Of a stretch of DNA of 64,000 nucleotides, positions 22,046 through 64,000 are shown piece after piece. The DNA lies in the IMG/VR virus record IMGVR_UViG_3300050821_005814, positions 32,001 through 96,000 of that record, one strand, 5' to 3'. Origin of the DNA: a virus. The translations under genes and the position numbers were made by a program. Within the stretch, counting starts at the first letter, position 1. Every line of letters begins with the position of its first letter. The notes under the pieces were generated by a model. It searched no databases. It saw nothing but the letters and a program-made list of their open reading frames with translations, and was not told where the DNA came from.

Positions 22046-22046
22046 A

Positions 22047-22775: not shown

Positions 22776-22787
22776 GCTATTGTCTGC

Positions 22788-23070: not shown

Positions 23071-23094
23071 AATGCGTATGCAGGAGACTACAGT

Positions 23095-23981: not shown

Positions 23982-23983
23982 AA

Positions 23984-24214: not shown

Positions 24215-24230
24215 AACGACCGTTTAGGTC

Positions 24231-25238
24231 ATGCCCTACGATTGGCGCTCTCTGCTGGACCAAGCGCGCATCCCCTGGCGCGTGAAAGGTCCCAACACAT
24301 CCAAAGGGAATGTGTCAATCGAGTGCCCATTTTGCGGCGACGATCCAAGCTTTCATTTCCAGCTTAGCGAAACGTTTGATGGCTACCGTTGCCTACGCGA
24401 CAGCAGGCACAACGGCTCGCATATGGTGCGCCTACTGGTCGCCTTAGGATATAGCCGCACCGAAGCGCAAGTACTCCTGCATGAGCATAAGCTGGACAAG
24501 AAGCCGCTCCCGCCAAAGCCGCGCGCCATTGAAGACCTGACCGACATCTGGCAGCGCTTCCCGCCAGCCGAAGACGCACCGCATAGCATGCGCTACCTGA
24601 AAGGGCGCGGCTTCACTAATCCCATGCAGACAGCTATTGACTACGATTTGCGCTATGCCAGGGCGGGCGATTGGGCGCAGCGTGTGCTCATACCATTTGC
24701 AGTTGATGGGATAGTCGTCAGTTGGGCTGGGCGCGCGACTACGAGTTACCTACGTCCTCGCTATCGTATGTATGATCCAAGTCCTCCTGGATTGATCTAT
24801 GTGCCGCGCGTCATCACGACTGAACAGACCGTTGTGATCGTCGAAGGGCAATTCGATGCACTCAAGATCGCAGTTGCAACAGAACGCGATTCCGTCGGTG
24901 TGATCGGCCTGAGCGGTAAGAACCTTGACAGCGCAGACCGTCTATTGCGCCTAGCACATGTGCTCGGCAAAAGCAGAAGGCTAATCTTGCTTGCGCTTGA
25001 TCCTGATGTCTCTGTTGGCGTTGCCAGCCATTCTATTATGCTGGTTGCGCAAGCATTGCGCTGGTGCTATGTTGCGCGCCTTCATGTGCCCGTCGGTCAG
25101 GAAGATCCAGGGGCAATGTCTTTGGGGGACGCGCAGAAGTGGATCCAAAACGCAATACGCGCAAACGCGCGAGTCTTTATGTCGGGCCGCAGTGGTCAGG
25201 CACATTCGAGGAATACGCCCGCAAGTACGCGCGCATAA
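24231..25238 (+). CDS. DNA primase (Zn finger plus TOPRIM)
   Basis: CPFCGDD...H...C; YLKGRG; RVLIP; IVEGQFDA; LDPD; EDPG. Confidence 0.9.
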   Translation: MPYDWRSLLDQARIPWRVKGPNTSKGNVSIECPFCGDDPSFHFQLSETFDGYRCLRDSRHNGSHMVRLLVALGYSRTEAQVLLHEHKLDKKPLPPKPRAIEDLTDIWQRFPPAEDAPHSMRYLKGRGFTNPMQTAIDYDLRYARAGDWAQRVLIPFAVDGIVVSWAGRATTSYLRPRYRMYDPSPPGLIYVPRVITTEQTVVIVEGQFDALKIAVATERDSVGVIGLSGKNLDSADRLLRLAHVLGKSRRLILLALDPDVSVGVASHSIMLVAQALRWCYVARLHVPVGQEDPGAMSLGDAQKWIQNAIRANARVFMSGRSGQAHSRNTPASTRA

Positions 25239-25720
25239 ACTACTGGAAGGTGCGCAAGCATTGCGAGACAGTGCAAGACGCTGAGCAGGAGTGCGCGATG
25301 GTCTTCGCCGACTGCTACAAGCGCTATGCGCACAAGGTCAACAATGATGCATGGTTCATGGCGCTGTACAAGCGCATGCTAGCAACGCATTGGATCAAGC
25401 TCGCCGAGAAGGGCCAGCGTCGATGTCTACTACCGATCATTGAAGAGCAGCCCGACGACTCGCTCGCGCTACTCGTAGCTGACCCTCAGGCAGAGGATAA
25501 CGTCGCAGGCGCGGCTGAGATCGCAGTCGCCTGGTCCCGTGCATCGTCCGAAGCGAAAGCAGTACTGCGCATAATTGCGGACGCGCCGGCGGAAGTCCTG
25601 CAAGAGCTGCTCAACAATAGGATCTCCGACACGCGGCGCAATCGCAGGTTTCGCCGCTGGGCCAATCTGCCTGGTAAGCCTGACATTCTCGGGGAGCTGC
25701 GTGCGTTACTACACGCATAG
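25139..25720 (+). CDS. Possible phage sigma-factor-like transcription factor
   Basis: DAEQECAMVF...Y...WFMALY resembles sigma region 2; GTG start inferred. Confidence 0.45.
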   Translation: MDPKRNTRKRASLYVGPQWSGTFEEYARKYARINYWKVRKHCETVQDAEQECAMVFADCYKRYAHKVNNDAWFMALYKRMLATHWIKLAEKGQRRCLLPIIEEQPDDSLALLVADPQAEDNVAGAAEIAVAWSRASSEAKAVLRIIADAPAEVLQELLNNRISDTRRNRRFRRWANLPGKPDILGELRALLHA

Positions 25721-25730
25721 GTAGCAATGT

Positions 25731-25740
25731 GGGTATAATG
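25731..25740 (+). promoter_or_regulatory. Phage promoter motif GGGTATAATG
   Basis: Intergenic, about 25 nt before ATG 25765. Confidence 0.6.
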
Positions 25741-25764
25741 CCTCTGTAGTCAGGAGGCACACCC

Positions 25765-26274
25765 ATGGTCAGACTAACGCCGAAGATGGTCGCGCCGACC
25801 GTCGCTATCAAGTTACGCGATGAGGTCATCGCCGAGATAGGCGATTGGCTGCTAATCATGCCAGACGACCAAGTTGTCGTCATGAACGATGCAGACGTGC
25901 GGGCAGTCTACACGCAGATCAAAGAGACTCATGCACCGGCAGGCAAAAAGTCCAAATACACGCGCGTTGTTGGCGTTTCGCCAAGATCATTTGCCGCCAT
26001 AATCAACGGCAAACCTGTGCGCGTCGGGGCGCAGACTATCCGCACATTGTCAGCCCTAAACGAGCTCCCTTTTGCACGCGGGACCACATCACAAGTAGCA
26101 AATAGGCTTACGCATCCTGATGATGCGCAGGTTTCAGCCCGCATGCTTGATGCAATCAGGTTTGAGTGCGTGCAATTGGATAAGTTCAATCGGCCCTTCA
26201 TATACCAACTCACGCCCGCAGGTGCGGAGGTCGTGCACCAATTCGGCAAGGAAGCAGGCAGAAAGGAATTCTGA
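25765..26274 (+). CDS. Hypothetical protein with winged-helix-like C-terminus
   Basis: AGGAGG SD; ...YQLTPAG. Confidence 0.7.
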   Translation: MVRLTPKMVAPTVAIKLRDEVIAEIGDWLLIMPDDQVVVMNDADVRAVYTQIKETHAPAGKKSKYTRVVGVSPRSFAAIINGKPVRVGAQTIRTLSALNELPFARGTTSQVANRLTHPDDAQVSARMLDAIRFECVQLDKFNRPFIYQLTPAGAEVVHQFGKEAGRKEF

Positions 26275-26276
26275 CT

Positions 26277-27041
26277 ATGGCTGAAATGATCACCTCGAAT
26301 CGCGCTGGCCCCCTCGCTAAGCGCGTATTGCTCTACTCAGGCGGCATGGATAGCGTCTGCTTTGACAACCTGCTCTTGCCTGACGTTTGCCTGTATGTGC
26401 GCAACAAAGCGCCCTATGCTGCATGCGAAGACTACTGCGTCGAGAAACTCGAGGCGCAGGACAAGATCAAAGGTGAGCTTGTGACACTCGATGCCAATGT
26501 GCTCGATCTCTCGCAATGGGAGCGCGATGACGCAATCGTGCCCAACCGCAATGCGCATCTCGTCCTACTCGCAAGCAACTATGGCGACCAGATCTATCTC
26601 AGTTCGGTCTATGGCGATCGATCCAACGACAAGGATGAGAAGTTCTACCGCCTGATGGAAATGCTACTCGGGCATATGTGGGATGAGCAGCATTGGACAA
26701 AGCGCCGGCGCTTCCGTATCTCAAGTCCCTTCAAGATGTGGACGAAATCAACGCTTGTCGACCGCTACTTGTCTCGCGGAGGTGACCACCTTGCGCTGCT
26801 GACATCCTACTCCTGCTACCGCGGGCAACCCAAGCATTGCGGCATCTGCAAGCCTTGCTTCCGCAAACGCGTCGCGCTCGAGAACAACTATATCGAAGTG
26901 CCGCGGGGTTACTTCGAGGATGACTTCTGGCGCCAAGACTGGTTTCATGAACTGCTGCCGCGCATGCAGGAAGGCAAGTATCGAGGCGATGAGGACAAGG
27001 ATGTACTCAAGTTCCTGCGGCTAAGGAATTTGCTTGCATAG
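26277..27041 (+). CDS. queC: 7-cyano-7-deazaguanine synthase
   Basis: LLYSGGMDS, VPNRN, SYSCY...HCGICKPCFRK. Confidence 0.92.
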   Translation: MAEMITSNRAGPLAKRVLLYSGGMDSVCFDNLLLPDVCLYVRNKAPYAACEDYCVEKLEAQDKIKGELVTLDANVLDLSQWERDDAIVPNRNAHLVLLASNYGDQIYLSSVYGDRSNDKDEKFYRLMEMLLGHMWDEQHWTKRRRFRISSPFKMWTKSTLVDRYLSRGGDHLALLTSYSCYRGQPKHCGICKPCFRKRVALENNYIEVPRGYFEDDFWRQDWFHELLPRMQEGKYRGDEDKDVLKFLRLRNLLA

Positions 27042-27090
27042 CGCTGCGCATAGCTACTAGCTTGCGCAGCCTAATGGGAGAACAGTAATC

Positions 27091-27321
27091 ATGGTTGCGA
27101 GCGTAAGCTCAATTGAGGCAGTCGTACGCATAGTGCGAAAGCATGTCTCAGATGAGAAGTTTCAGGTCATCGTGTCTGAGTTGATCGATGTGCCTGGTAA
27201 TGCATCGTTCCGCGAGTCGGTCATGCGCCTCGCCGACCTTGCTAACATTGGGCTTGATGGGCGGCCAACGCATGTGCGGCAGATCCGCAAGCGCGTGCGG
27301 CTTGTGCGGGTGAAGCTATGA
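27091..27321 (+). CDS. Hypothetical protein
   Basis: 76 aa, preceded by AATGGGAGAAC. Confidence 0.65.
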   Translation: MVASVSSIEAVVRIVRKHVSDEKFQVIVSELIDVPGNASFRESVMRLADLANIGLDGRPTHVRQIRKRVRLVRVKL

Positions 27322-27647
27322 CCGACACATCTCATGACTTCAGCGGCAAGTACGATGCATGGGAACTGCGCGTGTTCGATAGCGCGACAAGCTTCTCATG
27401 CGTCACGGTCTATGGCGGTGGTAGACGCGATAGGGCGGTGTTCTCCGATCTGCCCAGCGCCTTTAACGCAGCGCGCGACATGCAGCGCACATGCGTGTAT
27501 GCAGTGTCAGGCTTTGGTCACGGCATCTGCCTCGACCGCAAGCTATGGGATGTCTGGTTAGAGCGCTGGAACGAGAACCAACTGAGTAAGAAGATCACGC
27601 CGCGGCCTGTCAAGCGCCGCCGACGCGAGGCACTTGCATCTACCTAA
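27318..27647 (+). CDS. Hypothetical protein
   Basis: 109 aa, ATGA-coupled. Confidence 0.65.
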   Translation: MTDTSHDFSGKYDAWELRVFDSATSFSCVTVYGGGRRDRAVFSDLPSAFNAARDMQRTCVYAVSGFGHGICLDRKLWDVWLERWNENQLSKKITPRPVKRRRREALAST

Positions 27648-27673
27648 GCAAGTGCACTAGGACGACCTGTGCT

Positions 27674-27683
27674 TGGTATATTG
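27674..27683 (+). promoter_or_regulatory. Phage promoter motif TGGTATATTG
   Basis: Intergenic, before the histone-like gene. Confidence 0.6.
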
Positions 27684-27718
27684 CTAAGTCGGGAACACAA
27701 TGAGTCAGGAGCTAAGCG

Positions 27719-28351
27719 ATGGCTAACAAGACTGTCTACGACCTGCTGCTCGCCTTCGTGAAGGAGCAGGATGCTGACTTCGAGGAGCGCACCGAGAAGG
27801 AGACCGACCAGAAGTATCTCGCGCGCATGATGACCGTCATCTCGGAAGCAGACGAGGAAGTCTGGAACGGGCTCGACGAAGACGCGCAGAGCTGGTTCAA
27901 CGACGCGGCGATCGCGCGCAAAAAGCGGAAGGATGTCGACCTGCCAGACGGTTACGAGGCAGCGCCTGTGCCGGAGAAGGCAGCGCGCAAGAAGTCCGGT
28001 GCTGAGGCACTCGCTGAGACGACCGCCAAGAAGGCGGCTGGCAAGAAGGCGGCTGCACCTGCAAAGAAGGAAGCAGCTAAAAAGCAGGCTGCCCCGGCGA
28101 AGAAGGCGGCTGCCAAGAAGGAAGCTGCACCGAAGAAGGCTGCTGCTGCGACGAAGCCGAAGAAGGAACTGTCGGCTGCGCAGTTCATGCGGCAACTCGT
28201 CATCAAAAAGCACAACATCACAAACGAGGAAGTCGCGGAGAAGGTCGCCGCCAAGTTCGAGGACATCAGTGCAGCCACAATCGCCGCAACCGCGGGATTC
28301 ACGCGAAGCGTCATTCGCGACATGATCGAGATGGGCGTGCTATCGAGTTAA
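27719..28351 (+). CDS. Histone H1-like (AKK-rich) DNA-binding protein
   Basis: Acidic N-domain, KKAAAPAKK repeats, small C-terminal helical domain; has its own promoter and terminator. Confidence 0.75.
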   Translation: MANKTVYDLLLAFVKEQDADFEERTEKETDQKYLARMMTVISEADEEVWNGLDEDAQSWFNDAAIARKKRKDVDLPDGYEAAPVPEKAARKKSGAEALAETTAKKAAGKKAAAPAKKEAAKKQAAPAKKAAAKKEAAPKKAAAATKPKKELSAAQFMRQLVIKKHNITNEEVAEKVAAKFEDISAATIAATAGFTRSVIRDMIEMGVLSS

Positions 28352-28397
28352 CCTCCGCGTCTCTAGTTCTCCCAGGACAGCGTAGAGGTTGGCGGGA

Positions 28398-28434
28398 GGG
28401 GGCGGTCCTTGAGCGAGGCCGCCCCCTTTCTTTT
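28398..28434 (+). terminator. Rho-independent terminator
   Basis: GGGGGCGGT...GCCGCCCCC followed by TTTCTTTT. Confidence 0.85.
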
Positions 28435-28510
28435 GCAGCCTACCCCTAGCATGACAGCGCCCCTAATGCTGGAAGCTGCGGAGCCCCCCGTCCTAGCTCG
28501 CTCGCGATGG

Positions 28511-28520
28511 GGGTATATTG
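28511..28520 (+). promoter_or_regulatory. Phage promoter motif GGGTATATTG
   Basis: Intergenic, 30 nt before folE. Confidence 0.6.
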
Positions 28521-28549
28521 CTTAGCTGGACCCCATTTGCAGGACCGTC

Positions 28550-29176
28550 ATGTCAATGCACCCCGATGACTTCGCGCTCCCGCTTGAGCGCTCGCTTGAG
28601 CGCCCTTCCAAGTTTGACGCGCTAGCCGCTATGCGCACCATACTGCGTTACATAGGCGAAGACCCCTTGCGACCAGGCTTGCTTGAAACGCCAGACCGCG
28701 TGTTGCGCGCATGGGAACGCGAATGGGGGCGCGGGTATCGTGAAGACCCCAGCAAGTTTGCCCGGCTGTTCGAGGAAGAGCAGCCCTTCTATGACTCCAT
28801 GGTCATCGTGCGACACATTCGTGTGCGCAGCATGTGCGAGCACCACATGGCACCATTCATCGGCTACGCGCATGTCGGCTACCTGCCGAAAGACGCGCGA
28901 CATGTCGTTGGCATCTCGAAGCTTGCGCGCATCGTTGATCACTTCTCCCGCCGCTTGCAGGTGCAGGAACGCCTGACCTACGAGATCGTAGACTTCATCA
29001 TGGACAAGATCACCGATCTCGGGGCTGGCGTCATCATATGTGCCAAGCATACCTGCATGTGTACGCGTGGCGTGAATGAGGCGGAGGCTGAGACCGTTAC
29101 GTCAGCGCTGAAGGGGGCATTCTTTGACAACCCTGAAACGCGGTCCGAGTTCCTGCGCTTAGCGCATCCTAAATAG
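28550..29176 (+). CDS. folE: GTP cyclohydrolase I
   Basis: GLLETPDRV, SMCEHHMAPF, GISKLAR, RRLQVQERLT, HTCMCTRG. Confidence 0.96.
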   Translation: MSMHPDDFALPLERSLERPSKFDALAAMRTILRYIGEDPLRPGLLETPDRVLRAWEREWGRGYREDPSKFARLFEEEQPFYDSMVIVRHIRVRSMCEHHMAPFIGYAHVGYLPKDARHVVGISKLARIVDHFSRRLQVQERLTYEIVDFIMDKITDLGAGVIICAKHTCMCTRGVNEAEAETVTSALKGAFFDNPETRSEFLRLAHPK

Positions 29177-29185
29177 GAGAGCACT

Positions 29186-29830
29186 ATGAGTAAGCTTGTA
29201 ATCTCCATTGACGACAACATCATCTTCAAGCTGTTTCAGCAATCGAGCCTGATGCCTCCATGCATGTTGAAGATCGGTTGGTTGCAGGTGCTTGCTGCGA
29301 CCGCTGCGACGACGTTCGCTGGCCACATGCTGGATGTCAAGCTGTTCGATACGCCAGACAAGGTCTATAAGATTGTCAGCGATTTGACGCACCACTTTGA
29401 ACCCGCCTTTCTGTCTGTGCATGCGGCAGGAGGGCGCGAGATGCTCAATGCTGCATATGCCGCGGCGGCGGGGACGAACACGGAGCTGTTCGCAGTTGGC
29501 GTAATGACAACCGATCATGCAGCAAGAGGGATTGAGGAACTATCGCGCAATGTCGAGCTTGCTACGATGGCGCTGGAGACAGGTATCAACTATCTAAGTT
29601 GCAGTATGGATTCTGTGCATTTCCTGAAGACGATGTTCCCGGCGCTCAAGCTAATCGTGCCCGGCATCCGCATGGGCAACAGCGACCTTCGTATGGTCAA
29701 GGACCATGCGCGCGTGCACGAACCGACAGACCGACGTGTCGACTACTACGTCGTCGGGCGACCTATCACGCAATCGGCAGCACCCTTTGTGGAGGCGAAG
29801 CGTTACTTCGATGTGATCGATGCCCTCTAA
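29186..29830 (+). CDS. pyrF: OMP decarboxylase-like protein
   Basis: LKIG, LDVKLFD (DxKxxD), SVHAAGG, VPGIR, VVGRPITQS. Confidence 0.85.
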   Translation: MSKLVISIDDNIIFKLFQQSSLMPPCMLKIGWLQVLAATAATTFAGHMLDVKLFDTPDKVYKIVSDLTHHFEPAFLSVHAAGGREMLNAAYAAAAGTNTELFAVGVMTTDHAARGIEELSRNVELATMALETGINYLSCSMDSVHFLKTMFPALKLIVPGIRMGNSDLRMVKDHARVHEPTDRRVDYYVVGRPITQSAAPFVEAKRYFDVIDAL

Positions 29831-30884
29831 GCGCAAGGCGGGCACGCCGAAAGTCTGCATGCTCATAGATAGCGGCGCCTACTCAGCGTGGCGATTGAAG
29901 AAGCCAGTCAACCTCGATCAGTACTGCGACTTCTTGAAAGCCAATCTCGACTGGATCAACGGCTATGTCAACATGGATGTCATCATCCCGGAAGACCCTG
30001 AGAAGGCAGCAGCAGCAGGCTTCGAGAACTTTAAGTGCATGCGGCGCAAGGGACTCAATCCCATCCCTGTTGTGCACGCAGGCGAGGACATCAAGTGGAC
30101 CTATCGCTATCTCGATGCGAAGTGTGACTACCTGGGGATTTCCTCATCCATGTTAGGGCATCGTCCAGGCGGCATGGCGGACGACTGGTATGCGGAGGTC
30201 TGGTCGCATCTCGTTGACAGTCAGGGTAATCCCATCGTCAAGACGCATGCGTTCGGCGAGGGGCGGCAGGAAGCTATGCAGCGCTTCCCCTGGTACTCCG
30301 CTGACAGCGCGAGCTGGATTTATGCGTCGCAGCGCAGCGGACGTGTCAAGCTTATTGGCGGGCGTGATGTGCAGTTCCGTGCTGACGGTCTGCATACCGA
30401 ACGCGAACCCGACATCCTATCACTCGCCAAACATGATCACGGCGAGTTTAGCCGCATACTGGCAGACGAAGGGATTGACTGGGAAAGCTTCAAGGAGCGT
30501 TCAGGTCGCCCCGCCTACACCATTCGCACCTATTTGACCTGCAAGTACTTCCTTTGGTTGGAGAAGTACATACGCGGCATGCAGCCGATTGCTTTCCATC
30601 CGACATCCTTGTTTGGGCGCCCAAAGGTGAAGCTGCCGGGCATTCGGCTTAACGCATTCAACCTGCATCTCGTGCTTGGCGGCAATGCGTCAGCGCAAGC
30701 TGTGTTTGCGCATGCAGGCGGGACAAACGCCCTTGTGTCATTCTTTCACATCCTCGAGTTTGCGCACTACGCGACACTTCGCGACTTCGTGTATAATCCT
30801 CTCAAGACCTGTCAAACAGCAGAGCATCTGAAAGGGTACTACGATGTCATCGACAAGCTCGTTAAAGCGCCGGCAGCAGCGTAA
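29820..30884 (+). CDS. dpdA: DpdA-like (TGT-family) deazaguanine DNA transglycosylase
   Basis: IDSGAYSAW, NMDVI, PIPVVHAGE, HAFG, PWYSADSASW; located with folE/queC/D/E. Confidence 0.82.
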   Translation: MPSKRKAGTPKVCMLIDSGAYSAWRLKKPVNLDQYCDFLKANLDWINGYVNMDVIIPEDPEKAAAAGFENFKCMRRKGLNPIPVVHAGEDIKWTYRYLDAKCDYLGISSSMLGHRPGGMADDWYAEVWSHLVDSQGNPIVKTHAFGEGRQEAMQRFPWYSADSASWIYASQRSGRVKLIGGRDVQFRADGLHTEREPDILSLAKHDHGEFSRILADEGIDWESFKERSGRPAYTIRTYLTCKYFLWLEKYIRGMQPIAFHPTSLFGRPKVKLPGIRLNAFNLHLVLGGNASAQAVFAHAGGTNALVSFFHILEFAHYATLRDFVYNPLKTCQTAEHLKGYYDVIDKLVKAPAAA

Positions 30885-30897
30885 GAGCAGCGCGAAC

Positions 30898-31272
30898 ATG
30901 CAGCGCTTGTTGCATGCGCGTAAAGTGATGGAGCAGGTGCGTGATGAGCAGCGGCCATTCAATATGGCGACGTGGTTTGCGCCATCTGATCCAGAGTATG
31001 CGCATGACTGCCAGACTGCCGCTTGCTTTGGCGGTTGGTGCGCGCGAGATCCGCTGTTTCAGGCTGAGGGACTCGGAATCTTTATGGAGATGCCAGCTTA
31101 CAGCGACAGGGTAGGGTCAGTCGCACTAGCGAACTTCTTCAACATTAAGCTGCCCGACGCCAAGTTCCTGACGCTGCCGCGTAATTATGAGGAGCTCGTC
31201 GGCACCGCTGACAGAATCCAACCGCAACACGTCATCGACCATCTCGACATAGTCATAAAGAGGTACTCATGA
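30898..31272 (+). CDS. Hypothetical protein
   Basis: FNMATW...CQTAACFGGW. Confidence 0.7.
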   Translation: MQRLLHARKVMEQVRDEQRPFNMATWFAPSDPEYAHDCQTAACFGGWCARDPLFQAEGLGIFMEMPAYSDRVGSVALANFFNIKLPDAKFLTLPRNYEELVGTADRIQPQHVIDHLDIVIKRYS

Positions 31273-55308: not shown

Positions 55309-56962
55309 GGCGTTCCTAACGAAGCCGCTGCCTCATCTGCCCAAATTCAAAGGCGCGGACGAGGCAGCGCTTATGCGCCTGATCTACGACTCGACAGGAC
55401 AACCCTACGCACCAATCACAACCCCCCGCAAGCATCAGCTTGATGGCGTTGCATTTGCGCTGTATCAGCGCCGCGCTGTGCTGCAATACGACCCTCGGTT
55501 GGGCAAGACAAAGATGGCGCTCGACTGGGCTATGCACCTGCGCAAAGCCAATCTCTGGCGGGCAGGCAAGAAGGGGCTTGTCATCGCGCATTCGCCTGTC
55601 GGGTTGTCAGTATGGAAGCATGAGATCGCGAAGCACTCCAATCTATCAGCATGCTATGTGCAGAACGATGTGCAAGAGTTCATCGACGCGCTAGCAACGG
55701 ATGTCGACCTCATCGTGCTACCTTGGTCTGGCTTGCAGGCAATCTTCTCCGAGAAACGCCTAGCGCAGCGGGGACGACGCGCGGGGAAGCCTAAACTTTA
55801 CCCCTTCTATGCAGCGCTGCACATTGCGGCGGAGGAGTTCGGGCTCGTCATTGCGGACGAGATCCACATGTGCAACAACCATATGTCGCTGCGTTTCAAG
55901 ATCGCTGCCAAGATCATTGAGGGGTGCCGCTTTCGCTTGGGACTGACTGGCACACCAATCGGCCGCAACAAGCTTGCGATATGGCCGTCCAGCTATCTCC
56001 TAGATGAAGGAGCAGCGCTCAGCGCAAGCTACCCATTTTTCGAGGCTGCTTTCAGCGCGCGCAAGAAGAACTGGTTCGGGCGGCACAAAGGGCTGTTCAA
56101 AAACGAGAAGACTGGCGTTGAGACCTGGGCCAACTACGACTACGTGTTTGACAATGACAAGCTACCGCTCCTGCAGGCGAAGCTTGCCACCCTAGCGATC
56201 AGCTACAAGCTGAAGGAGGTACGCGCTGTTGATGTGCGGCCTGATGTCATCGAGCTGACCATGTCGCTTGAACAGGCGGAGGCGTACAACGAGGTCGTGC
56301 AGCGTGCACGCATGATTCACAGCGGAGATGTGCATGAGATTCAGAACTCGTTTGTGCGCTTGCGGCAGATCTCGTCGGGGTTCATACCCTTCACGGACAG
56401 CGATGGTAAGCAGCATATGCGGCAGTTCACGCACCCGTCGAAGGTTGAGTGGCTGTCGGACTTGCTCGAGAAGATAGACCCTGACTTAGCGCTCATCATC
56501 TTTCATGAGTTCACGGAGTCAGGGGACCGCATATGCGGACTGCTCGAGGCTGCTAAGATCAAGCATGCATGGTTCTACGGCGGCACAAAGGACAAGGACG
56601 CGATTGGCAAGTTTCAGCGCGGCGACATCAACGTGCTTGTCGCTAACACGGCGAAAGGCGGCATGTCAATTGACTTACATCGCGCTGACTACATGTTGTT
56701 TTATGAGAGTCCCGTCAGTCCCATCACACGCACGCAAGCCGAGGCGCGTCCGCTAGCTGAGCAGCGCGGCAAGCGTCCTCTGATTATTGACGACCTCGTC
56801 TGTTCACCAATCGAACGCAGAGTGCGTGAGCTCGTACGTGAAGGTAAGAACGCGCTCAAAGCATTGACGAGTGCACCGCGCAGTTGGGAGATGCTTGACC
56901 TGCATGCATTAGGCAAAAAGAAACCCCCAGGCCGTAAAGCCCAGGGGCGCTTGCCGCTTTAG
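55283..56962 (+). CDS. SNF2-family (SF2) helicase
   Basis: PRKHQ, RLGKT, DEIH, LTGTP, LRQISSG, QAEAR. Confidence 0.9.
   Translation: MPISKKAIEAFLTKPLPHLPKFKGADEAALMRLIYDSTGQPYAPITTPRKHQLDGVAFALYQRRAVLQYDPRLGKTKMALDWAMHLRKANLWRAGKKGLVIAHSPVGLSVWKHEIAKHSNLSACYVQNDVQEFIDALATDVDLIVLPWSGLQAIFSEKRLAQRGRRAGKPKLYPFYAALHIAAEEFGLVIADEIHMCNNHMSLRFKIAAKIIEGCRFRLGLTGTPIGRNKLAIWPSSYLLDEGAALSASYPFFEAAFSARKKNWFGRHKGLFKNEKTGVETWANYDYVFDNDKLPLLQAKLATLAISYKLKEVRAVDVRPDVIELTMSLEQAEAYNEVVQRARMIHSGDVHEIQNSFVRLRQISSGFIPFTDSDGKQHMRQFTHPSKVEWLSDLLEKIDPDLALIIFHEFTESGDRICGLLEAAKIKHAWFYGGTKDKDAIGKFQRGDINVLVANTAKGGMSIDLHRADYMLFYESPVSPITRTQAEARPLAEQRGKRPLIIDDLVCSPIERRVRELVREGKNALKALTSAPRSWEMLDLHALGKKKPPGRKAQGRLPL
56915..56947 (-). 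terminator. Rho-independent terminator for the convergent small gene
   Basis: Minus strand CCCCTGGGC-TTTACG-GCCTGGGGG then TTTCTTTTT. Confidence 0.8.
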
Positions 56963-57165
56963 CCGTAGATCGCTACCGCTATCTCGTCCGTGAGCAACAT
57001 CTCTTCTTGCTGCGCAGAAGCGGGTACGCGCTGCTGAAGCAATGCTAGGACTGCGTTTGCATTGTTGATGTTGCCAACGTCGACCATTGCCTCATATGCA
57101 GCAATCAACGCGTAGCGTGGCTGATCGTTCTCGTCGCGCGCAGGCGCGAACTCTGCAACTTGCAT
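56959..57165 (-). CDS. Small hypothetical protein ending in AIYG
   Basis: ATG 57165 after AGGAGA; has its own terminator. Confidence 0.7.
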   Translation of the reverse strand: MQVAEFAPARDENDQPRYALIAAYEAMVDVGNINNANAVLALLQQRVPASAQQEEMLLTDEIAVAIYG

Positions 57166-57552
57166 AGCTGATTCTCCTGACAAAGAGCGGGGACACGACA
57201 TTGCGTCCAACAGCATGCTAGCAGTCCCGCAGCAGCGTAGCGTTGCTCATTGCGCATCGCTGAAAAATTGGTCTGTAATAGCTGCCCTAATAGGCATATG
57301 CACGGGCATATGCAGGGAAATTGCGCTGCGCAAAACTGTGGGGGGTTTGGCTAGTTTTAGCTAGCGCAACGCTGCGAGCCAAAAGTGCGCCGTTCCGCCT
57401 AGGCGGAAGCGCAATGACCCCCTACTAACCCCTTGAAATCGTAGTGGGTTTTTATCTAGTAGTCAGATCTGCGCGCAGATAGTATATTTATGTCAATCCC
57501 CTAGCTAAATAACAGCCTAAAGAGGGGGAATGAGGCAGCGCTAGCTGCTCGC

Positions 57553-57939
57553 GGGGTCCGACCCCCCGCCCCCATTCCCAGCGGTCAACGGACTAGCTAA
57601 GCGCTGCTTAGCTGCTCCCCACCAGGACCCCTTAGCGCAGCGCAGCGCGGGATTGGGGAATGGGTGACGGAGTACCTGACGAGGACCTCTTGCTTCGGTG
57701 CGCTGACGTCTGCACCAGCAACGGGACCAGCCGGACCGCCGTGACAGACATGAGTCGGCAGCGTGCAGTATCCTAGTAGCTTCTAGGCAACGAAATGCAT
57801 GCGACGGTGCGCATAGCGCAGCGCGAGTCCCCTTAGCTAGCAGCAATGCAGCGGGAGTGGGGTAGCGCTAAGCGCGGGACTACGCGCCTTAGCATAGCAG
57901 GACGGACCACACGCTCGGTTTGGGACTCATGCTGGGTGC
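57553..57939 (+). ncRNA. Candidate structured ncRNA upstream of the early genes
   Basis: ORF-free, multiple nested long-range helices. Confidence 0.5.
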
Positions 57940-58036
57940 AAACATAAAGTTCTCTCTCATTGTTCTACTGATGAAAGCGTCAATGCTTTTGCATATGCCT
58001 CTAGCGCCGCAGCGCGGGATTAGGCGATATATGCAA

Positions 58037-58063
58037 TTGCATTGACGCTATGCAGCTATAGCA
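58037..58063 (+). promoter_or_regulatory. Putative host sigma70-type early promoter
   Basis: TTGCAT/TTGACG ... GCTATAGC just before the first leader hairpin at 58072. Confidence 0.4.
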
Positions 58064-58109
58064 CCTTACGCTGCACTGATGATTCCTGGTGCACAATGGG
58101 AGAACAAAT

Positions 58110-58451
58110 ATGCTCAAAGCGAAGCGCGTGACGATCGAACGTGACCATCGCGCTAACGGCTACATTGCTGGCTGGAACGGCCGCGTCCCAGGCGACGATC
58201 ACCCGGAGTATTTGGAGGGACACAAGCAAGGCGTTGCAGCAGCGAAAAGAGCAAATGACGTCGAAACGTTCGCTGCGCGTACGAGAAAGCATCATAAGGA
58301 CGTGCGTGCTGCTGCTAAAGCGCTACGCGACGCTGCGCCTGACCTTGCTAATGCTTTACGACTCGCAAGGGAATTGGCATGCACAGCTGGCGGCTTGCGG
58401 CACGACCAAATTGACTCATTGCTCGCGCATATGATTCTATACGGCTACTAA
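58110..58451 (+). CDS. Early hypothetical protein
   Basis: ATG after GGGAGA leader; ends ILYGY. Confidence 0.75.
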   Translation: MLKAKRVTIERDHRANGYIAGWNGRVPGDDHPEYLEGHKQGVAAAKRANDVETFAARTRKHHKDVRAAAKALRDAAPDLANALRLARELACTAGGLRHDQIDSLLAHMILYGY

Positions 58452-58520
58452 CGCGTACAGATGCAGCGCATTGCGCTGCATTTGCCTGCGCTAGTGCAGG
58501 ATACAATGGGAGAACAAAAT

Positions 58521-59045
58521 ATGGCTTACAAAGCACGGAAGCTTACGCGCGCTGAGATGACTGCAAAGGAGAACGCAGCGCTTGCAGAGGCGGGTATGGC
58601 TATTGACGCTGCGAACAGCAACCCAGACACGACGAACGTTCAACGCTATCAGCTCGCGTCGCGCATCCTTTGGATCCAAGGGGCGCACAAGTATGTGTTC
58701 CCTAGCCAACTGATGCTTAGTGCTGCGCATGCGGACAAAGCGAAGTACCAAGCCGACTTTGACGTATATGCTCATGCCGAGGGCGTCAAGCATGCGCGGT
58801 CTTATGCGCTGGGCGGTGCAAATAGGTATCTCGAGAAAATGAAGAAGCATGCCGAGCGATTGATCGAAGACCTCAACCGCTATCAAGTGCAGCTCAACGC
58901 AGACAACAACGATAACGTCGACCGGTCCGATCGCTTCGGCTGGGCGGTCAATGAGATCGAAAACTTCTGCCGCAACGTTGGCTACAGCGAAGCAACGCGC
59001 ATTTGCGCTACGCTTGCAAAGGCTTTTGACCGCAAAGACGACTAA
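58521..59045 (+). CDS. Early hypothetical protein
   Basis: ATG after repeat leader. Confidence 0.8.
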   Translation: MAYKARKLTRAEMTAKENAALAEAGMAIDAANSNPDTTNVQRYQLASRILWIQGAHKYVFPSQLMLSAAHADKAKYQADFDVYAHAEGVKHARSYALGGANRYLEKMKKHAERLIEDLNRYQVQLNADNNDNVDRSDRFGWAVNEIENFCRNVGYSEATRICATLAKAFDRKDD

Positions 59046-59113
59046 CGCGTATGGATGCAGCGTTCGCTCACGCTGCATTCACCTGCGCTAGTGCAGGCAA
59101 TGGGAGAACTCAA

Positions 59114-59344
59114 ATGGTTGAAGTTGAAATGATCGGCCGCGCACTCAAGCTTGGCGACAAGCTGAGCAATGGGGCGGTCGTCATGGCATATCGCGACGTA
59201 AGCTTTGATCGGCGCATAGTGCTCGCGCTGTTCCGTCGCACTGAGTATGTCACGTGGCGGCTTGACTATGACAACAACCCCTGGGGCGGACACTACTTCG
59301 AGGGCGACCTCGTCGCCGCTGCCATGGACTTTCTCAGCCGCTGA
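59114..59344 (+). CDS. Early hypothetical protein
   Basis: ATG after repeat leader; YVTW...GHYF...A..DF..R. Confidence 0.8.
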   Translation: MVEVEMIGRALKLGDKLSNGAVVMAYRDVSFDRRIVLALFRRTEYVTWRLDYDNNPWGGHYFEGDLVAAAMDFLSR

Positions 59345-59357
59345 AGGAGTATGCGCT

Positions 59358-59633
59358 ATGGTTGGAACACGCTTTGAAATCACGGATCTCGACCTTGGCG
59401 AGGCTGCTTACTTCGAGCTCGCGTGCAAGACGCATATGCAGCGCAGCACGTTCGGCACAAGGGAAGCGCTCGTCGCGCTGATCGCTATTGCGCAAGGTAA
59501 GCAAGTCTCCGACGCCGTCCGCAACGATGCGATCAATGCCGCTAGTGCGGTCATCGTACAAAAAGGTTGCGAGGAGATGGGTGAGGGGTTGTCCTACCTG
59601 ACGGACAACATCGACGTCATAATTTACGGCTGA
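59358..59633 (+). CDS. Early hypothetical protein ending in IIYG
   Basis: AAGGAG SD; similar to 56959-57165. Confidence 0.75.
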   Translation: MVGTRFEITDLDLGEAAYFELACKTHMQRSTFGTREALVALIAIAQGKQVSDAVRNDAINAASAVIVQKGCEEMGEGLSYLTDNIDVIIYG

Positions 59634-59705
59634 CCCTGATGGATGCAGCATAAGGAGATGCTGCATTTACCTAGGCCAGACCTGGGATACAATGGGAGAA
59701 CGAAT

Positions 59706-59945
59706 ATGAAGGTAAAGTACACGATCACTGCTGAAGTGATGGTCGACATCATGCCAGACGACGACAACAAGGTGCCGCCAAAAGTGCTTCGCAAAGTGCC
59801 ATCGCAACTCAAGCATGAGTTGCGGTACACGCTGCAAGAAGACGATCAGCTGTCCAACAGCTTGCTCGATACACTCGGGCATGTCATTCGACTCAAGGTC
59901 AAGCGATTGGCCGTCGACCAATCCGGACCATTATGGATCCGCTAA
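59706..59945 (+). CDS. Early hypothetical protein
   Basis: ATG after repeat leader. Confidence 0.75.
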   Translation: MKVKYTITAEVMVDIMPDDDNKVPPKVLRKVPSQLKHELRYTLQEDDQLSNSLLDTLGHVIRLKVKRLAVDQSGPLWIR

Positions 59946-60020
59946 GTAACTAGCTTGGATGGAAGCAGCGCCAATGCGCTGCTTCTACCTGCGCTAGTGC
60001 AGGGCAATGGGAGAACGAAT

Positions 60021-60368
60021 ATGAAGATCGATCCGACGACCACGCGCCGCATACTTCGGGTTGGCGATATCGTCATGGTCCGCAGCGCGCATACGAACAA
60101 GGTGCTGAAGACGATGAAAATTGATCGCGTCAGCAAGGCGCAAAAGCGCGTGCATCTCGAAGGTCAGCATGCAGACATTGCGTTTTACTACCAGCAAGGC
60201 AGCATGCACTACAGGCAAAACCCCGGTTCGGGTTTGGCTGGTAGCTTTCTCAACGACTACTTTTGCATCGATGATGTCAAGTCCGGTCCCGGCTATATCG
60301 AAGCCGAAGGCGATGACGGCTCGAAGCTGTTTATCAACAGCAATGGCGATGTACGCGGTATCTTCTGA
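60021..60368 (+). CDS. Early hypothetical protein
   Basis: ATG after repeat leader. Confidence 0.75.
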   Translation: MKIDPTTTRRILRVGDIVMVRSAHTNKVLKTMKIDRVSKAQKRVHLEGQHADIAFYYQQGSMHYRQNPGSGLAGSFLNDYFCIDDVKSGPGYIEAEGDDGSKLFINSNGDVRGIF

Positions 60369-60446
60369 CCCTGATGGATGCAGCGCTCGAAGCGCTGCAT
60401 CTACCTAGGCCAGCATGGCGTAGGGTATCACAATGGGAGAACTTAC

Positions 60447-61184
60447 ATGGCACTTAACGACAAGATCCGCAAGCTCATGGCACTGGCGACGCACCCTGGC
60501 AGCAATGCGCAGGAGGCGGCCGCTGCTGCCGCAATGGCTGCAGAGCTTGCGCTCAAGTACAACATCGACCTCGAAAGCGTCTCGCAGGAGACGACAAAGC
60601 AGGCCAAGGTGTTCATGCGCGGTAACACTGCATTCAAGGTGTCGCCGCGTGACCGGTCCGCTGGCTTTGCCATACAGCATGGTATCGCCAAGCTGTATGG
60701 TGTGAAGCCTGCATACCACTATGACGGCAGTCAAAATCATATGTGGTACATTGGACAGGAGCACAACGTTGCTGTTGCCAATAGCTGGTCGGAATACCTT
60801 TGGAACGCGTGCCTCAAGGCCAACGTCGAGTACAGCCGGCGGCGCATATACGATAGCGCGAAGGAACGCTATCGCGCGGACCAGACCTTCCGTCTGACCT
60901 TCTCGCGTGAAGTATGCTCGCGTCTCGAAGAGAAGCAGCAGCGCATGAAGGACACTGGCGTATCATCGACTGGCACGGCGCTCGTCGTTGTCAATTGGTA
61001 TGAGGCTGAGCGCAAGGAGATCCAAGCTTGGGTCGACAATACTATGAAAATGAAGACGACGACCTCGAAGGCAAAGCGCATTGACTCGGGCGCTGCGCTT
61101 GCGGGGCACGAAGCTGGTCGTCGCGTTGGTCTGCATGACCAGCTCGCCGGCCGGGCGCAACCTACAATGCGCCGCATAGCCTAA
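60447..61184 (+). CDS. DUF2786-domain protein
   Basis: DKIRKLMALA...N.QEAAAA...A..L..KYNI; C-terminal AG.EAG. Confidence 0.85.
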   Translation: MALNDKIRKLMALATHPGSNAQEAAAAAAMAAELALKYNIDLESVSQETTKQAKVFMRGNTAFKVSPRDRSAGFAIQHGIAKLYGVKPAYHYDGSQNHMWYIGQEHNVAVANSWSEYLWNACLKANVEYSRRRIYDSAKERYRADQTFRLTFSREVCSRLEEKQQRMKDTGVSSTGTALVVVNWYEAERKEIQAWVDNTMKMKTTTSKAKRIDSGAALAGHEAGRRVGLHDQLAGRAQPTMRRIA

Positions 61185-61264
61185 CCTGTAGGGAAGCAAC
61201 GCAGCGCTCAGCGTTGCTTCTCCCTGGGTTAGTTAGTCCAGGGTAACGCAATGGGAGAACTTAG

Positions 61265-62149
61265 ATGACACTAGAACTTAGAGATCCGCAAGTCCGCGCT
61301 GAGCTGTTCGCAATGCGCTGGGCGAGCGAGTCCGCTGCAAAGCAGTGGCTTCGTCGGCAGGGTGCCAATGCTGAGGCATTGACAACCAACGGGCTGATCG
61401 TTGGAATGGCGCCTGACAACGGCGTCTGCCTGCAGGAGCAGGTTACTGCTGTGAAAGGGACCATCCCGCAGGCGGCAAAGGCAAAGGAGCGCAGCGCTGC
61501 AACGCGCCGTGCTCTCGAGCTGGACGCTGCGACGGGTAAGGGGAAGGTCGCGGACATCGATGACAAGGTCGCAGCGCATGAGAAAGCGGATGCGGCGGGT
61601 GATATCGAGGATGCGCGGCCGAAGGTTCCCCAAACACTCGTCGACGGGGACACACCACTCCCTGACACGGAGTCGCTGCTCGCGCGGGACACGTCTGGGC
61701 GCGTAATGATCAATCGGTCGCATGAGGCGTTCATTCGCCTGCCGACAATGGGACCGAAAGACAAGCTTCGCTCCTGGGCGGCATACTACGCCGCTTACCT
61801 GCGCACTGTCATTGACGTGTGCGATGTCGAGACAGGCGCATTGATCGAACGCTTCAACGGTCGCGGTGCGACAGTACGTCCGCCATCGACCAGCAAGCCG
61901 CGCGTGTCCATGACCAATGGTACTGGTCGCGGCCGCAGGGCGAGCAGCGCTGCACTGAGTCCCTTGCAACTCAAGTGGATTGAGCTTGCGTCGCGTCCAG
62001 ATGGCGCCAAGCGCACCGAGCTCACGTCTGCCAATGAGGGCACTGTCCTCAATTGGAAGGGTGTGCTCGAATCGCTTGGTAAGAAGCGCGGCCTGTCGCT
62101 GACGGTCACAAAGGCGCAGGGTGAGACGCCTGTATACAAGCTAGCCTAA
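61265..62149 (+). CDS. Early hypothetical protein, possible C-terminal wHTH
   Basis: 294 aa after repeat leader; LASRPDGA...EL...W...YKL. Confidence 0.8.
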   Translation: MTLELRDPQVRAELFAMRWASESAAKQWLRRQGANAEALTTNGLIVGMAPDNGVCLQEQVTAVKGTIPQAAKAKERSAATRRALELDAATGKGKVADIDDKVAAHEKADAAGDIEDARPKVPQTLVDGDTPLPDTESLLARDTSGRVMINRSHEAFIRLPTMGPKDKLRSWAAYYAAYLRTVIDVCDVETGALIERFNGRGATVRPPSTSKPRVSMTNGTGRGRRASSAALSPLQLKWIELASRPDGAKRTELTSANEGTVLNWKGVLESLGKKRGLSLTVTKAQGETPVYKLA

Positions 62150-62225
62150 CCTGTAGGGAAGCAGCATGGTAGCGCATGCTGCTTCTCCCTGGGTTAGACC
62201 TGGGATGACCAATGGGAGAACGAAT

Positions 62226-62552
62226 ATGGCTAGCAGTTCATATATAGGCGAAGAGTACGCCGATCATGTCGCAGTACCTGCTTGTATCAGGCATGACGAA
62301 GAGCTTTGCTGGCACTATGCAGAGCTCGCCGCAGAGATCTTCTTTCGCGGTACGATGCCTCAGTACGATGATGCTGCGTACTGGCGGTATAGCGCAAGCT
62401 GTTACTTGCCTGAAAACCAGCCGCAGTACCGCAACAGCATGCCTCCTCCTCCTCCAAGCGAGGATGACGCATTTGACATGACCTACGACGATTGCATCGA
62501 GGAAGCTGAAAAGATTGAGTGCGGCTTTGTCGGCGGCGAGGAGATGGTGTGA
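62226..62552 (+). CDS. Early acidic hypothetical protein
   Basis: ATG after repeat leader; D/E-rich. Confidence 0.7.
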   Translation: MASSSYIGEEYADHVAVPACIRHDEELCWHYAELAAEIFFRGTMPQYDDAAYWRYSASCYLPENQPQYRNSMPPPPPSEDDAFDMTYDDCIEEAEKIECGFVGGEEMV

Positions 62553-62698
62553 TGTCTGACCACGAAATAGTCGAGATGCTCATGCTACTCGGCAAGATCG
62601 TATGGAGCGTCGCTGGGATCGCTGCCGGTGCCTTTAGCATCTTCGCTAATGGCGTCGTCATTTGGCGCATCATGACCGGCAAACGTCTCTGGACCTGA
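62552..62698 (+). CDS. Small membrane peptide (48 aa)
   Basis: Read manually; TGATG-coupled; its stop lies in the next repeat. Confidence 0.6.
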   Translation: MSDHEIVEMLMLLGKIVWSVAGIAAGAFSIFANGVVIWRIMTGKRLWT

Positions 62699-62771
62699 CC
62701 CTGATGGATGCAGCGCAAGCGCGCTGCATCTACCTAGGCCAGTCGCTTAGGACAACAATGGGAGAACGAAT

Positions 62772-63107
62772 ATGGTACCGACTATCAGACTAATGGTCAT
62801 GCGCAGCGGTACGCGCTACTTCATCTACAACCGAGGCATGACATTCGTCATGCAGCGCGCGGATGGGTCGCAGGCTGCGCTCGGCCTGATCACGCATGAA
62901 CCCGTCATGTTCATGTTCGCGCTGGAAGACGCGCTGCTGTCCAAGGACAACCCCAGCGGCATGGCGATGAAAGCAGCAAAAGCGTTCCTCGGCGAGGACT
63001 GCAAGATCAACCTTATCCACACTGTCACGAAGCCGATCGAGGATAAGGATCCCGCGATTGAGCTCGAGGCGGCGGGGATCAACCTGACGGAGGCGCATGT
63101 GTCATGA
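62772..63107 (+). CDS. Early hypothetical protein
   Basis: ATG after repeat leader. Confidence 0.75.
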   Translation: MVPTIRLMVMRSGTRYFIYNRGMTFVMQRADGSQAALGLITHEPVMFMFALEDALLSKDNPSGMAMKAAKAFLGEDCKINLIHTVTKPIEDKDPAIELEAAGINLTEAHVS

Positions 63108-63490
63108 AGCGCTATAGCATTCTAATGGTATGCGGCTTGGTTGTTGCGCTTGCTTTTGCGTACGTGCACGGTGCTTTAGCTGATGGATTGCTCACAGCAT
63201 TCATCGGCGCAGTATGCGGCATGTACGTTGGCAGTTGGGCATTCCAGCGCTGGGGCGACCCCAAGCTCATGCGGGACTGGGATCGTGTCAGCAACCGCAA
63301 TTGGTCGCTTGCGCAAGCAAGTCAAGCAATGTTCGACGCAGGTATCGGCGAGCCTTATGCTGATGCTGAGCACGATATGATCGACCTGCTGCGGGGACAC
63401 GTGACCCTGCCCGAGTTGATCGAGGTGATGCGTATATTACACAACGCATGGGGTCACCGCTTCCTGCATGATCTCGTGACGGGCGACTAA
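63104..63490 (+). CDS. Early membrane protein
   Basis: Two N-terminal TM segments; ATGA-coupled. Confidence 0.7.
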   Translation: MKRYSILMVCGLVVALAFAYVHGALADGLLTAFIGAVCGMYVGSWAFQRWGDPKLMRDWDRVSNRNWSLAQASQAMFDAGIGEPYADAEHDMIDLLRGHVTLPELIEVMRILHNAWGHRFLHDLVTGD

Positions 63491-63559
63491 CGCGTACGGT
63501 TGCAGCGCTTGTCAGCGCTGCACTCGCCTGCGCTAGTGCAGGACAATGGGAGAACAAAT

Positions 63560-64000
63560 ATGGTACGCATACTATCGGTTGACTGGGACTTCTTCGTCGA
63601 GGAAGACCCCATGCTTGACTATGGGCATCGCGAAGTAAGCCTGTTCCTCGAGATGATCTGGCATACGCGTCGCCAAGGGTACCTATGGGACCCAGCGACG
63701 CAAACGGCCGAACCCATTCGACGTGACCTGACAAAGCTCCTGCCGTTCCGCGGCGACCCAGCGTTTCTGCAAGTGGCAGCTATGCGCTGGCACAACTACG
63801 ACGTTGCGGTCGCTGAGTCACACCTGACAATCTTACAGATGATTGGGCAGCGGACCGATCTCGAGATCATCAACGTCGACGCGCATCACGACATTCACTA
63901 TGGTACCTTGCCCAAAGATGATGTCGTGCATTGCGGCAATTGGGGCGCTCACCTCATGCAGCAAAATCGCGTGCGCTCCTGGACGCAGATCTACCCGGAG
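63560..64000 (+). CDS. Arginase/ureohydrolase-fold (UPF0489-like) protein, partial
   Basis: Read manually: ILSVDWDFF...ESH...INVDAHHD...CGNW; runs off the right edge. Confidence 0.7.
   Translation, partial: MVRILSVDWDFFVEEDPMLDYGHREVSLFLEMIWHTRRQGYLWDPATQTAEPIRRDLTKLLPFRGDPAFLQVAAMRWHNYDVAVAESHLTILQMIGQRTDLEIINVDAHHDIHYGTLPKDDVVHCGNWGAHLMQQNRVRSWTQIYPE

Follow-up and report, generated by a model that had tools for sequence, protein, structure and literature searches.

A covarying two-state hairpin cassette between the small genes of an uncultured phage: a candidate mRNA processing signal fused to a standard ribosome-binding site

The DNA described here is part of IMG/VR record IMGVR_UViG_3300050821_005814, a 106,805-bp genome of an uncultured phage, rated 100% complete and having a G+C content of 57%. 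The analysed window, i.e., the whole 64-kb stretch to which positions refer unless genome positions are specified, comprises positions 32001 to 96000 of this record. The genome encodes a family A DNA polymerase, a ribonucleotide reductase, a DnaB-type helicase, an SbcC-like nuclease, a portal protein, a prohead protease, and a PBSX-type terminase. Late genes occupy the − strand and the replication module the + strand, the latter ending at position 56962. It is followed by a mostly noncoding stretch of 1.1 kb, with a single 85-residue open reading frame on the − strand (positions 56959 to 57216) at its left edge, and then by a + strand block of about 17 small genes that begins at position 58110 and reaches genome position 98.5 kb, in convergent orientation to the late genes. 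This array is punctuated by a hairpin cassette, which is the subject of the present analysis. Calling the array genes "early" is an assumption. Known families are represented by two of them only, one combining DUF2786 and DUF7168 (positions 60447 to 61184) and one of the DUF932 family beyond the window. The cassettes divide single genes or translationally coupled gene pairs; the three array junctions that carry none (59344/59358, 62552, and 63104) have an ordinary Shine-Dalgarno (SD) sequence or overlapping stop and start codons. A BLAST search of the region against 50,697 phage records gave no match, and no close cultured relative was found, the DNA polymerases of the closest cultured phages being only about 30% identical.

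Nine full cassettes lie in the window and 13 in the genome, because four further copies (genome positions 96222, 97377, 97749, and 98243) follow right after the window end. All are located on the + strand within the one operon, and none occurs elsewhere. The nine window copies had been reported in a first-pass annotation made from the sequence alone, and both their positions and their common geometry were confirmed (Table 1). Each cassette is composed, in this order, of a CTRRC box (5′ box), five nucleotides ending in A, an inner hairpin, the motifs CCTRS and GYYAG, the 12-mer CAATGGGAGAAC containing the SD sequence, and an ATG codon 4 to 5 nt further on. The inner hairpin comprises 12 to 13 bp in the window copies, except for 9+3 bp in the copy at 63487. 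The 12-mer occurs ten times in exact form in the window, compared with 0 occurrences expected, always on the + strand and between positions 58094 and 63555; when up to two mismatches are allowed, 17 matches are obtained in the window versus 4.3 ± 2.0 in shuffled sequences. Genome-wide, there are 13 exact 12-mers and a fourteenth copy carrying T in place of the first C. Thirteen of these boxes terminate full cassettes, and the one at 58094 terminates a degenerate leader of the array. When the genome was scanned with a structure model (R1) built from the cassette copies, the 13 cassettes scored 62 to 84 bits, the leader 29 bits, and a partial copy 15 bits, and nothing else was found.

The upstream stop codon is situated inside the 5′ box, at the same three box columns, in 8 of 9 window copies, as had been noted before, and in 12 of 13 copies genome-wide. 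The sole window copy deviating in this respect is G4, where TAA at 59943 lies outside the box. From the stop codon to the inner hairpin the gap is fixed at 7 nt. An internal loop of 2 to 3 × 2 nt, with an invariant A on one side and CC on the other, separates a predicted outer stem of 8 bp from an inner stem of 12 to 15 bp, of which the central four pairs (CAGC/GCUG core) are invariant or nearly so (22 to 23 of 23 copies). The distance from the inner stem to the CAAT motif varies between 10 and 27 nt. For the first gene of the array (58110), the first-pass annotation had described only a single leader hairpin plus SD sequence, right after a putative promoter. This hairpin is no more stable than those of shuffled sequences (z = −0.07), model R1 instead reads the leader as a degenerate full copy, and a promoter scan yielded no sigma-70-like site at that place.

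A metagenome scan revealed a relative of the phage, represented by two contigs of one assembly (L207 and L210) that are identical across their shared 10.2 kb. It is syntenic, with SbcC-like and DnaB-type genes upstream of the array and 66 to 72% DNA identity there; the array proteins of the two phages are 33 to 48% identical. The relative carries at least 10 cassettes, seven with the exact 12-mer and three, detected with a second structure model, with drifted boxes (CAACGGGAGAAT, CAATGGGAATAC, and CAATGGAAGGAC in the three distal copies). Both the 12-mer and a 16-mer, CCTGCGCTAGTGCAGG, are unchanged between the two phages, the latter being present in 3 copies of the relative. A stop codon is in box register in 5 of the first 7 copies of the relative, and its first cassette displays the full structure with no upstream gene.

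The cassette can adopt two mutually exclusive pairings. In state 1, the 5′ box pairs with a 3′ box located behind the inner hairpin, forming the outer stem. Covariation in this state was assessed in a 20-sequence alignment (A2), with columns 5-12/52-59 as outer and 16-27/38-49 as inner stem. For the two stems together, 90.0% of the cells are paired, compared with 73.3 ± 1.3% after shuffling and 25 to 45% when the partner is slid, and 16 of the 20 pairs show changes on both sides; the earlier statement that pairing is kept by compensatory changes across sequence classes thus holds for outer and inner stem. Considered alone, the outer stem is 80.6% paired versus 69.9 ± 1.8% in shuffles (reached in 0 of 2000) and 24 to 45% with a slid partner, and it comprises 13 distinct haplotypes. 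In state 2, the 3′ box instead pairs with the adjoining downstream sequence to give a second hairpin (hairpin 2), which had likewise been proposed, and which is present in every copy and covaries. Its 3′ arm could not be aligned by MAFFT, and an anchored search and a model-fitted alignment were used instead. In all 23 copies, hairpin 2 begins at the first C of the invariant CC, and the anchored search gave 4 to 8 contiguous pairs; its 14 distinct versions exceed their own shuffles. In the 23-copy model-fitted alignment, which is biased towards the structure it was fitted to, the first two pairs are C-G in all copies, and the fourth pair is G-C in 18, A-U in 2, C-G in 1, and U-A in 1. Columns 53, 54, and 55 of the 3′ box covary both with their partner in the 5′ box and with their partner in hairpin 2; for instance, in two copies of the relative, a change from G to A at column 55 is accompanied by changes from C to T on both sides. 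It is these three-way changes that argue most strongly for the relevance of both folds. A real two-state structured element is strongly supported, and its function is what we infer in the following.

With respect to build, the closest known counterparts are the RNase III processing sites of phage T7. E. coli RNase III substrates typically comprise two helical turns, coaxial stacking being allowed; internal loops confine the cut to one strand, leaving a protective 3′ hairpin; and at least 11 bp are needed between the cut and the hairpin loop (PMC1540722). The predicted long form of the cassette has the corresponding dimensions: a helix of 8 bp plus 12 to 15 bp, supported by covariation, and a loop of 2 to 3 × 2 nt below an inner stem of 12 to 15 bp (9+3 in one case). 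For comparison, the five T7 early sites were folded here, using gene coordinates from the RefSeq record and cut positions which we take to be those of the early sites. Sites R0.3, R0.5, R1, R1.1, and R1.3 all fold as lower stem, internal loop, and upper stem, and the stop codon of T7 gene 0.4 falls within the lower stem of R0.5. Like the cassettes, the T7 sites are repeated, related in sequence, intercistronic in a polycistronic message, and comprise about two turns of helix; one of them is located before the first gene, and the T7 cut on the 3′ side of the loop leaves a 3′ hairpin (PMC1540722). The cassettes differ in having a longer upper stem (12 to 15 versus 9 to 10 bp) and a smaller, more symmetric loop, and their cut is only predicted. 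In addition, the downstream fragments of T7 lack a 5′-terminal hairpin (−0.3 to −4.8 kcal/mol), whereas the cassettes carry a covarying one at the predicted cut, and the T7 sites are neither fused to an identical ribosome-binding box nor in a fixed register with stop codons.

We favour the view, with a probability of roughly 0.5, that the cassette joins a T7-type RNase III processing signal to a standard ribosome-binding site and refolds into hairpin 2 after the cut, because its long form has the dimensions of an RNase III substrate, its build resembles that of the T7 sites, and a covarying hairpin starts at the predicted cut. The cassette would thus be an intercistronic signal in the sense mRNA that processes and insulates the message of each gene. 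In state 1, the outer stem, usually including the upstream stop codon, would stack on the inner hairpin across the xA/CC loop, giving a roughly two-turn helix built like a T7 site. Host RNase III, or a similar double-strand endonuclease, would cut the 3′ side of the internal loop, and the upstream message would then end in the inner hairpin. The released 3′ box would refold with the adjoining downstream sequence, from the first C of the invariant CC, and therefore the downstream message would start with a 5′-terminal hairpin a few bases before CAATGGGAGAAC and ATG. Stem-loops in this position slow 5′-end-dependent decay. Given the fixed 7-nt distance between stop codon and hairpin, a ribosome that terminates in the 5′ box would melt the outer stem while sparing the inner hairpin, and ribosome passage would probably also drive the switch to the two-hairpin form. 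If this is true, every gene of the operon receives the same 5′ end, protective hairpin, and ribosome site, whatever lies upstream, and the phage solves a problem that synthetic biologists tackle with ribozyme or Csy4 insulators. The cassette is also an unusually clean natural case of one RNA segment selected to pair with two alternative partners, three positions covarying three ways, and it therefore lends itself to work on the coupling between RNase III sites, translation termination, and mRNA stability.

The folds of the elements, with z scores of −1.9 to −5.3, count in favour of this interpretation; several other observations weigh against it. The two states are nearly isoenergetic, differing by no more than 1.6 kcal/mol in 13 of 20 copies. 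Six copies of this phage favour state 2, by 1.6 to 6.7 kcal/mol, and the predicted minimum is the two-hairpin form in 10 of 13 elements and the long helix in only 3 of 13, so that the long helix would have to be transient or captured by the enzyme. In classes B and E, the outer stem has just 5 pairs and a mismatch. In the full precursor, the SD box is about as unpaired as in the "processed" RNA starting at CC; hence the output does not consist in hiding the ribosome site, and SD masking was rejected as an explanation. The excess of G-U over A-C cells that would mark the sense strand as the folding one is seen in the inner stem (21 versus 6) but not in the outer stem (17 versus 18), and sense and antisense strands fold equally well (−30.4 versus −30.6 kcal/mol). 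The earlier argument that G-U pairs are mostly on the sense strand thus applies to the inner stem alone and is weak as evidence for RNA; the case for sense mRNA rests mainly on the fixed orientation of the cassettes and their fusion to stop codon, SD sequence, and ATG. The stop-codon register and the 12-nt invariance around the SD sequence, moreover, exceed what a plain RNase III site needs. Finally, a search of the phage genome detected no RNase III gene. Taken together, the cut-and-protect mechanism suggested by the first-pass annotation is partly supported, agreeing with the anatomy (two-turn helix, internal loop, hairpin 2 at the 3′ side of the loop, identical ribosome-binding site) but less well with the two-hairpin ground state predicted for most copies, the unchanged accessibility of the ribosome-binding site, and the weak strand asymmetry.

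Translation-driven switching is the main rival, or a complement, to cutting and refolding. Here, cleavage would not be obligatory: a terminating ribosome would hold the 5′ box so that the 3′ box forms hairpin 2, untranslated RNA would keep the long helix, and either the stability of the RNA or the loading of ribosomes on the following gene would depend on which form it takes. That the stop codon recurs in three fixed columns of the 5′ box, in this phage and in most of the first seven cassettes of the relative, speaks for such a switch, as do the covariation of both pairings, the small energy difference between them, and the fixed 7-nt gap. Judging by the ribosome footprint, a ribosome positioned at the stop codon would melt the outer stem and keep the inner hairpin intact. 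However, the switch has no visible output, the SD box being equally unpaired in both forms, and the fully structured first cassette of the relative has no upstream gene. The motif TTCTCCC, complementary to the SD sequence and previously pointed out for class C, is indeed present in classes C and D but does not generalise to the other classes. Nor does the length from stop codon to ATG show a frame preference; with 11 of 23 copies in frame, most of these containing further stops, stop-codon readthrough or frame coupling was rejected as well. On balance, we regard a switch of this kind as possible but doubtful.

The invariant sequences raise the question of an additional reader. The 12-mer is identical in 21 copies from two phages whose array proteins are only 33 to 48% identical, and it is longer than pairing with 16S rRNA requires; this invariance suggests a further reader, of host or phage origin. 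The cassette might accordingly be recognised by an RNA-binding protein or nuclease that the phage encodes, with a role like that of T4 RegA or RegB, acting array-wide through the SD box and/or the conserved CAGC/GCUG core, whose four central pairs are likewise (nearly) invariant. Most array genes also have no known function, but no candidate protein was found, the boxes of three distal copies in the relative have drifted, and part of the identity within a genome could be accounted for by concerted evolution, so that we consider a dedicated factor unlikely. A related proposal, about as doubtful as the ribosome-driven switch, is that the cassette is a bistable intercistronic RNA switch rather than a plain cutting site, flipped between a long helix and two stacked hairpins by a terminating ribosome or by a phage factor reading the invariant box, and gating downstream processing or decay. 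If so, a family of soil phages of about 105 to 113 kb would share a natural module that combines an insulator with a standard ribosome site.

The cassettes may also be viewed at the DNA level, as junctions for gene shuffling, either handles for homologous recombination resembling the promoter(early) stem-loop elements (PeSLs) of T4-type phages or folded sites resembling integron attC, with RNA structure being incidental. Comparison with the relative shows that gene order between the elements does differ: the homologues of 60021-60368 and 60447-61184 are swapped, and several whole cassette-bounded genes are present in one phage only. Inner-stem sequences are genome specific, the class of a cassette is independent of the downstream orthologue, and in the relative an 80-nt stretch reaching into the final codons of the preceding genes is the same in two copies; cassettes of one genome thus evolve in concert. 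Cassette copies also appear to be break points of gene shuffling between related phages, and the recombination handle proposed earlier as an alternative receives some support as a side effect. That sense and antisense strands fold equally would also suit a DNA element. Homologous recombination, however, needs identity and not compensatory changes in two alternative helices, and the constant orientation of the cassettes and their linkage to stop codon and SD sequence point to mRNA. Copies have evidently recombined with one another, but apparently as a by-product, and as the primary role of the cassette recombination seems to us quite improbable. PeSLs, which are similar in being short, repeated regulatory cassettes that lie between small nonessential genes and mark modular shuffling, consist of a sigma-70 early promoter and a terminator stem-loop (PMC2839356), and both of these components are absent from the cassettes. 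Sites of the attC type, including those of integrase-less arrays, share with the cassettes a length of 55 to 62 nt as imperfect palindromes at gene 3′ ends, conservation of structure over sequence, the succession of outer stem, unpaired spacer, and inner stem, and a stop codon often inside the site. Matches to the attC cores RYYYAAC and GTTRRRY, however, are confined to class C: both the AAC (R″) and the GTT (R′) triplet occur in only two copies and are missing in the other 11 of 13, which have GAC..GCC or AAC..GCT. The cassettes furthermore have a 1×1 mismatch in place of extrahelical bases and include an invariant ribosome-binding box within the unit. No integrase was detected; specifically, the tyrosine recombinase family PF00589 is absent from this genome rated 100% complete, in a search whose control matched in 14 of 14 genomes.

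The least probable account, to which we assign hardly any weight, is that each cassette is a promoter, of sigma-70 or hairpin type, or an intrinsic terminator. It is true that xxCAAT before GGGAGA resembles a −10 element, that one sigma-70-like match exists at 59666-59693, and that GGGAGA recalls the T7 transcript start. Spacing between −35 and −10 elements is not kept, though, because the distance from the inner stem to CAAT varies, and promoter- or terminator-like sites are no more common in the region than in its shuffles. No terminator-like site coincides with any cassette, and neither hairpin is followed by a U tract. The hairpin 2 loops of 3 to 13 nt do not fit N4-type hairpin promoters, and a T7-type RNA polymerase was not found in the genome, in a search whose control was silent. 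Promoter and terminator readings were therefore rejected.

Among known systems, T7-type RNase III sites are thus closest in build, PeSLs in evolutionary behaviour, and the start-associated sequences (SAS) of Cluster K mycobacteriophages in layout. SAS are asymmetric conserved 12- to 13-mers that include an SD sequence 3 to 7 nt before ATG, occur in one orientation at nonstructural genes only, and sometimes overlap the upstream stop codon, their function being unknown; about half of them are preceded by an inverted repeat of variable spacer (extended SAS, ESAS); its departures are reported not to support RNA pairing, and DNA-binding proteins were favoured by the authors (PMC3203893). The cassettes have in common with SAS/ESAS the arrangement of an SD-bearing box and an inverted repeat in one orientation. 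SAS/ESAS, however, combine a 13-mer, GGGATAGGAGCCC, with 17-bp inverted repeats lacking covariation, whereas the cassettes have another 12-mer and strongly covarying helices. A comparison of the whole window with Rfam 15 gave no match at the gathering threshold, and in E-value mode only one chance match was obtained (RNase P, 15 bits versus a threshold of 97), so that no described family accounts for the element.

Outside the two phages, the patterns and model used here detected no further member in IMG/VR or in the species genomes scanned. A 1.1-kb contig from another sample (L208) represents the same phage, with 99.9% identity. Pattern scans of IMG/VR returned chance or coding matches only (e.g., a helicase motif encoding ..QGSQWEN), and in 185,579 species genomes there were only five isolated matches, attributable to chance, and no clue to the host. 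Among 65 IMG/VR contigs with DUF932 homologues, the structure model found zero copies, and a search with the neighbouring helicase as a single protein yielded no relatives. A terminase-profile search of IMG/VR retrieved a single 19.6-kb contig with 61% identity, all other matches belonging to distant phages; the closest terminases are carried by contigs of 104 to 113 kb.

Table 1. Coordinates of the cassettes and associated features in the window
Feature	Class	Position	Strand	Details
Cassette-punctuated operon of small genes		58110..64000, on to genome 98.5 kb	+	
Array leader, degenerate cassette		58037..58105	+	R1 29 bits, E = 3e-6; ends in CAATGGGAGAAC; ATG 58110
Leader parts				TTGACGCT box, weak TGCAGC/GCTGCA stem, weak hairpin TGCACTG..TGGTGCA
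Cassette G1	A	58448..58515	+	R1 78 bits; fold z = −3.8
G1 parts				5′ box 58448-58457 (TAA 58449-58451); inner hairpin 58458-58484; 3′ box and hairpin 2 58485-58500; SD box 58504-58515; ATG 58521
Cassette G2	A	59042..59109	+	R1 83.5 bits
Cassette G3	B	59630..59701	+	Weak outer stem; hairpin 2 CCTAGG/CCTGGG
Cassette G4	A′	59950..60016	+	5′ box CTAGC; predicted lowest-energy fold is state 1
Cassette G5	B	60365..60442	+	Identical copy in second metagenome (L208, 99.9% identity)
Cassette G6	C	61181..61260	+	8-bp outer stem; predicted lowest-energy fold is state 1
Cassette G7	C	62146..62221	+	Fold z = −5.2
Cassette G8	B	62695..62767	+	Hairpin 2 CCTAGGC/GCTTAGG
Cassette G9	A	63487..63555	+	R1 83 bits
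Lone partial copy, replication/queuosine module		27043..27083	+	7-bp hairpin GCTGCGC..GCGCAGC, then directly TAATGGGAGAAC; ATG 27091; R1 15 bits

Several further features were noted in the 1.1 kb that separate the helicase gene from the array. At 57976-58049, immediately upstream of the array leader, there is an inverted repeat of 21 nt with 90% complementarity and a 32-nt spacer, and several TAGCGCAGCGC / CGCAGCGCGGGATT repeats are distributed over positions 57362 to 58026; this repeat-bearing stretch may be the control region of the array. The only sigma-70-like site on the + strand upstream of the array is located at 57460-57488 (TAGTCA, 17 nt, TATATT), and its spacer contains a palindrome, AGATCTGCGCGCAGAT, with an operator-like look. 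At positions 57943 to 57958, the sequence GTTCTCTCTCATTG is nearly complementary to the shared box. Its − strand reads as the box-like CAATGAGAGAGAAC, with ATG 3 nt on and then an 18-codon frame, and this may be a ribosome site of divergent orientation, not an antisense silencer.

Elsewhere in the genome, the virion module includes two giant genes on the − strand, encoding 2177 and 1935 residues (genome positions 18088-24621 and 25129-30936; L308:88-6621 and L308:7129-12936). Examined as possible virion RNA polymerases, they gave no Pfam or PDB sequence match and only a weak match to a structural-protein PHROG. Among the IMG/VR contigs with DUF932 homologues, another phage group (L347, L352, and about 20 more) carries the sequence (CAACT)AGGAGAAAGC(AA)ATG before up to 12 genes per locus. 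The AGGAGAAAGC repeat is often preceded by a hairpin such as GTGGCCACTGCGGTTCAGTGGCAC, resulting in a "hairpin plus standard ribosome site" layout of unrelated sequence. A further contig with a DUF932 homologue (L369) contains seven copies of the palindrome CCGGGGGACAnnTGTCCCCC immediately after stop codons, resembling terminators or repeated intergenic hairpins. In the window itself, the partial cassette copy listed in Table 1 adjoins a QueC-like gene at positions 26277 to 27041.

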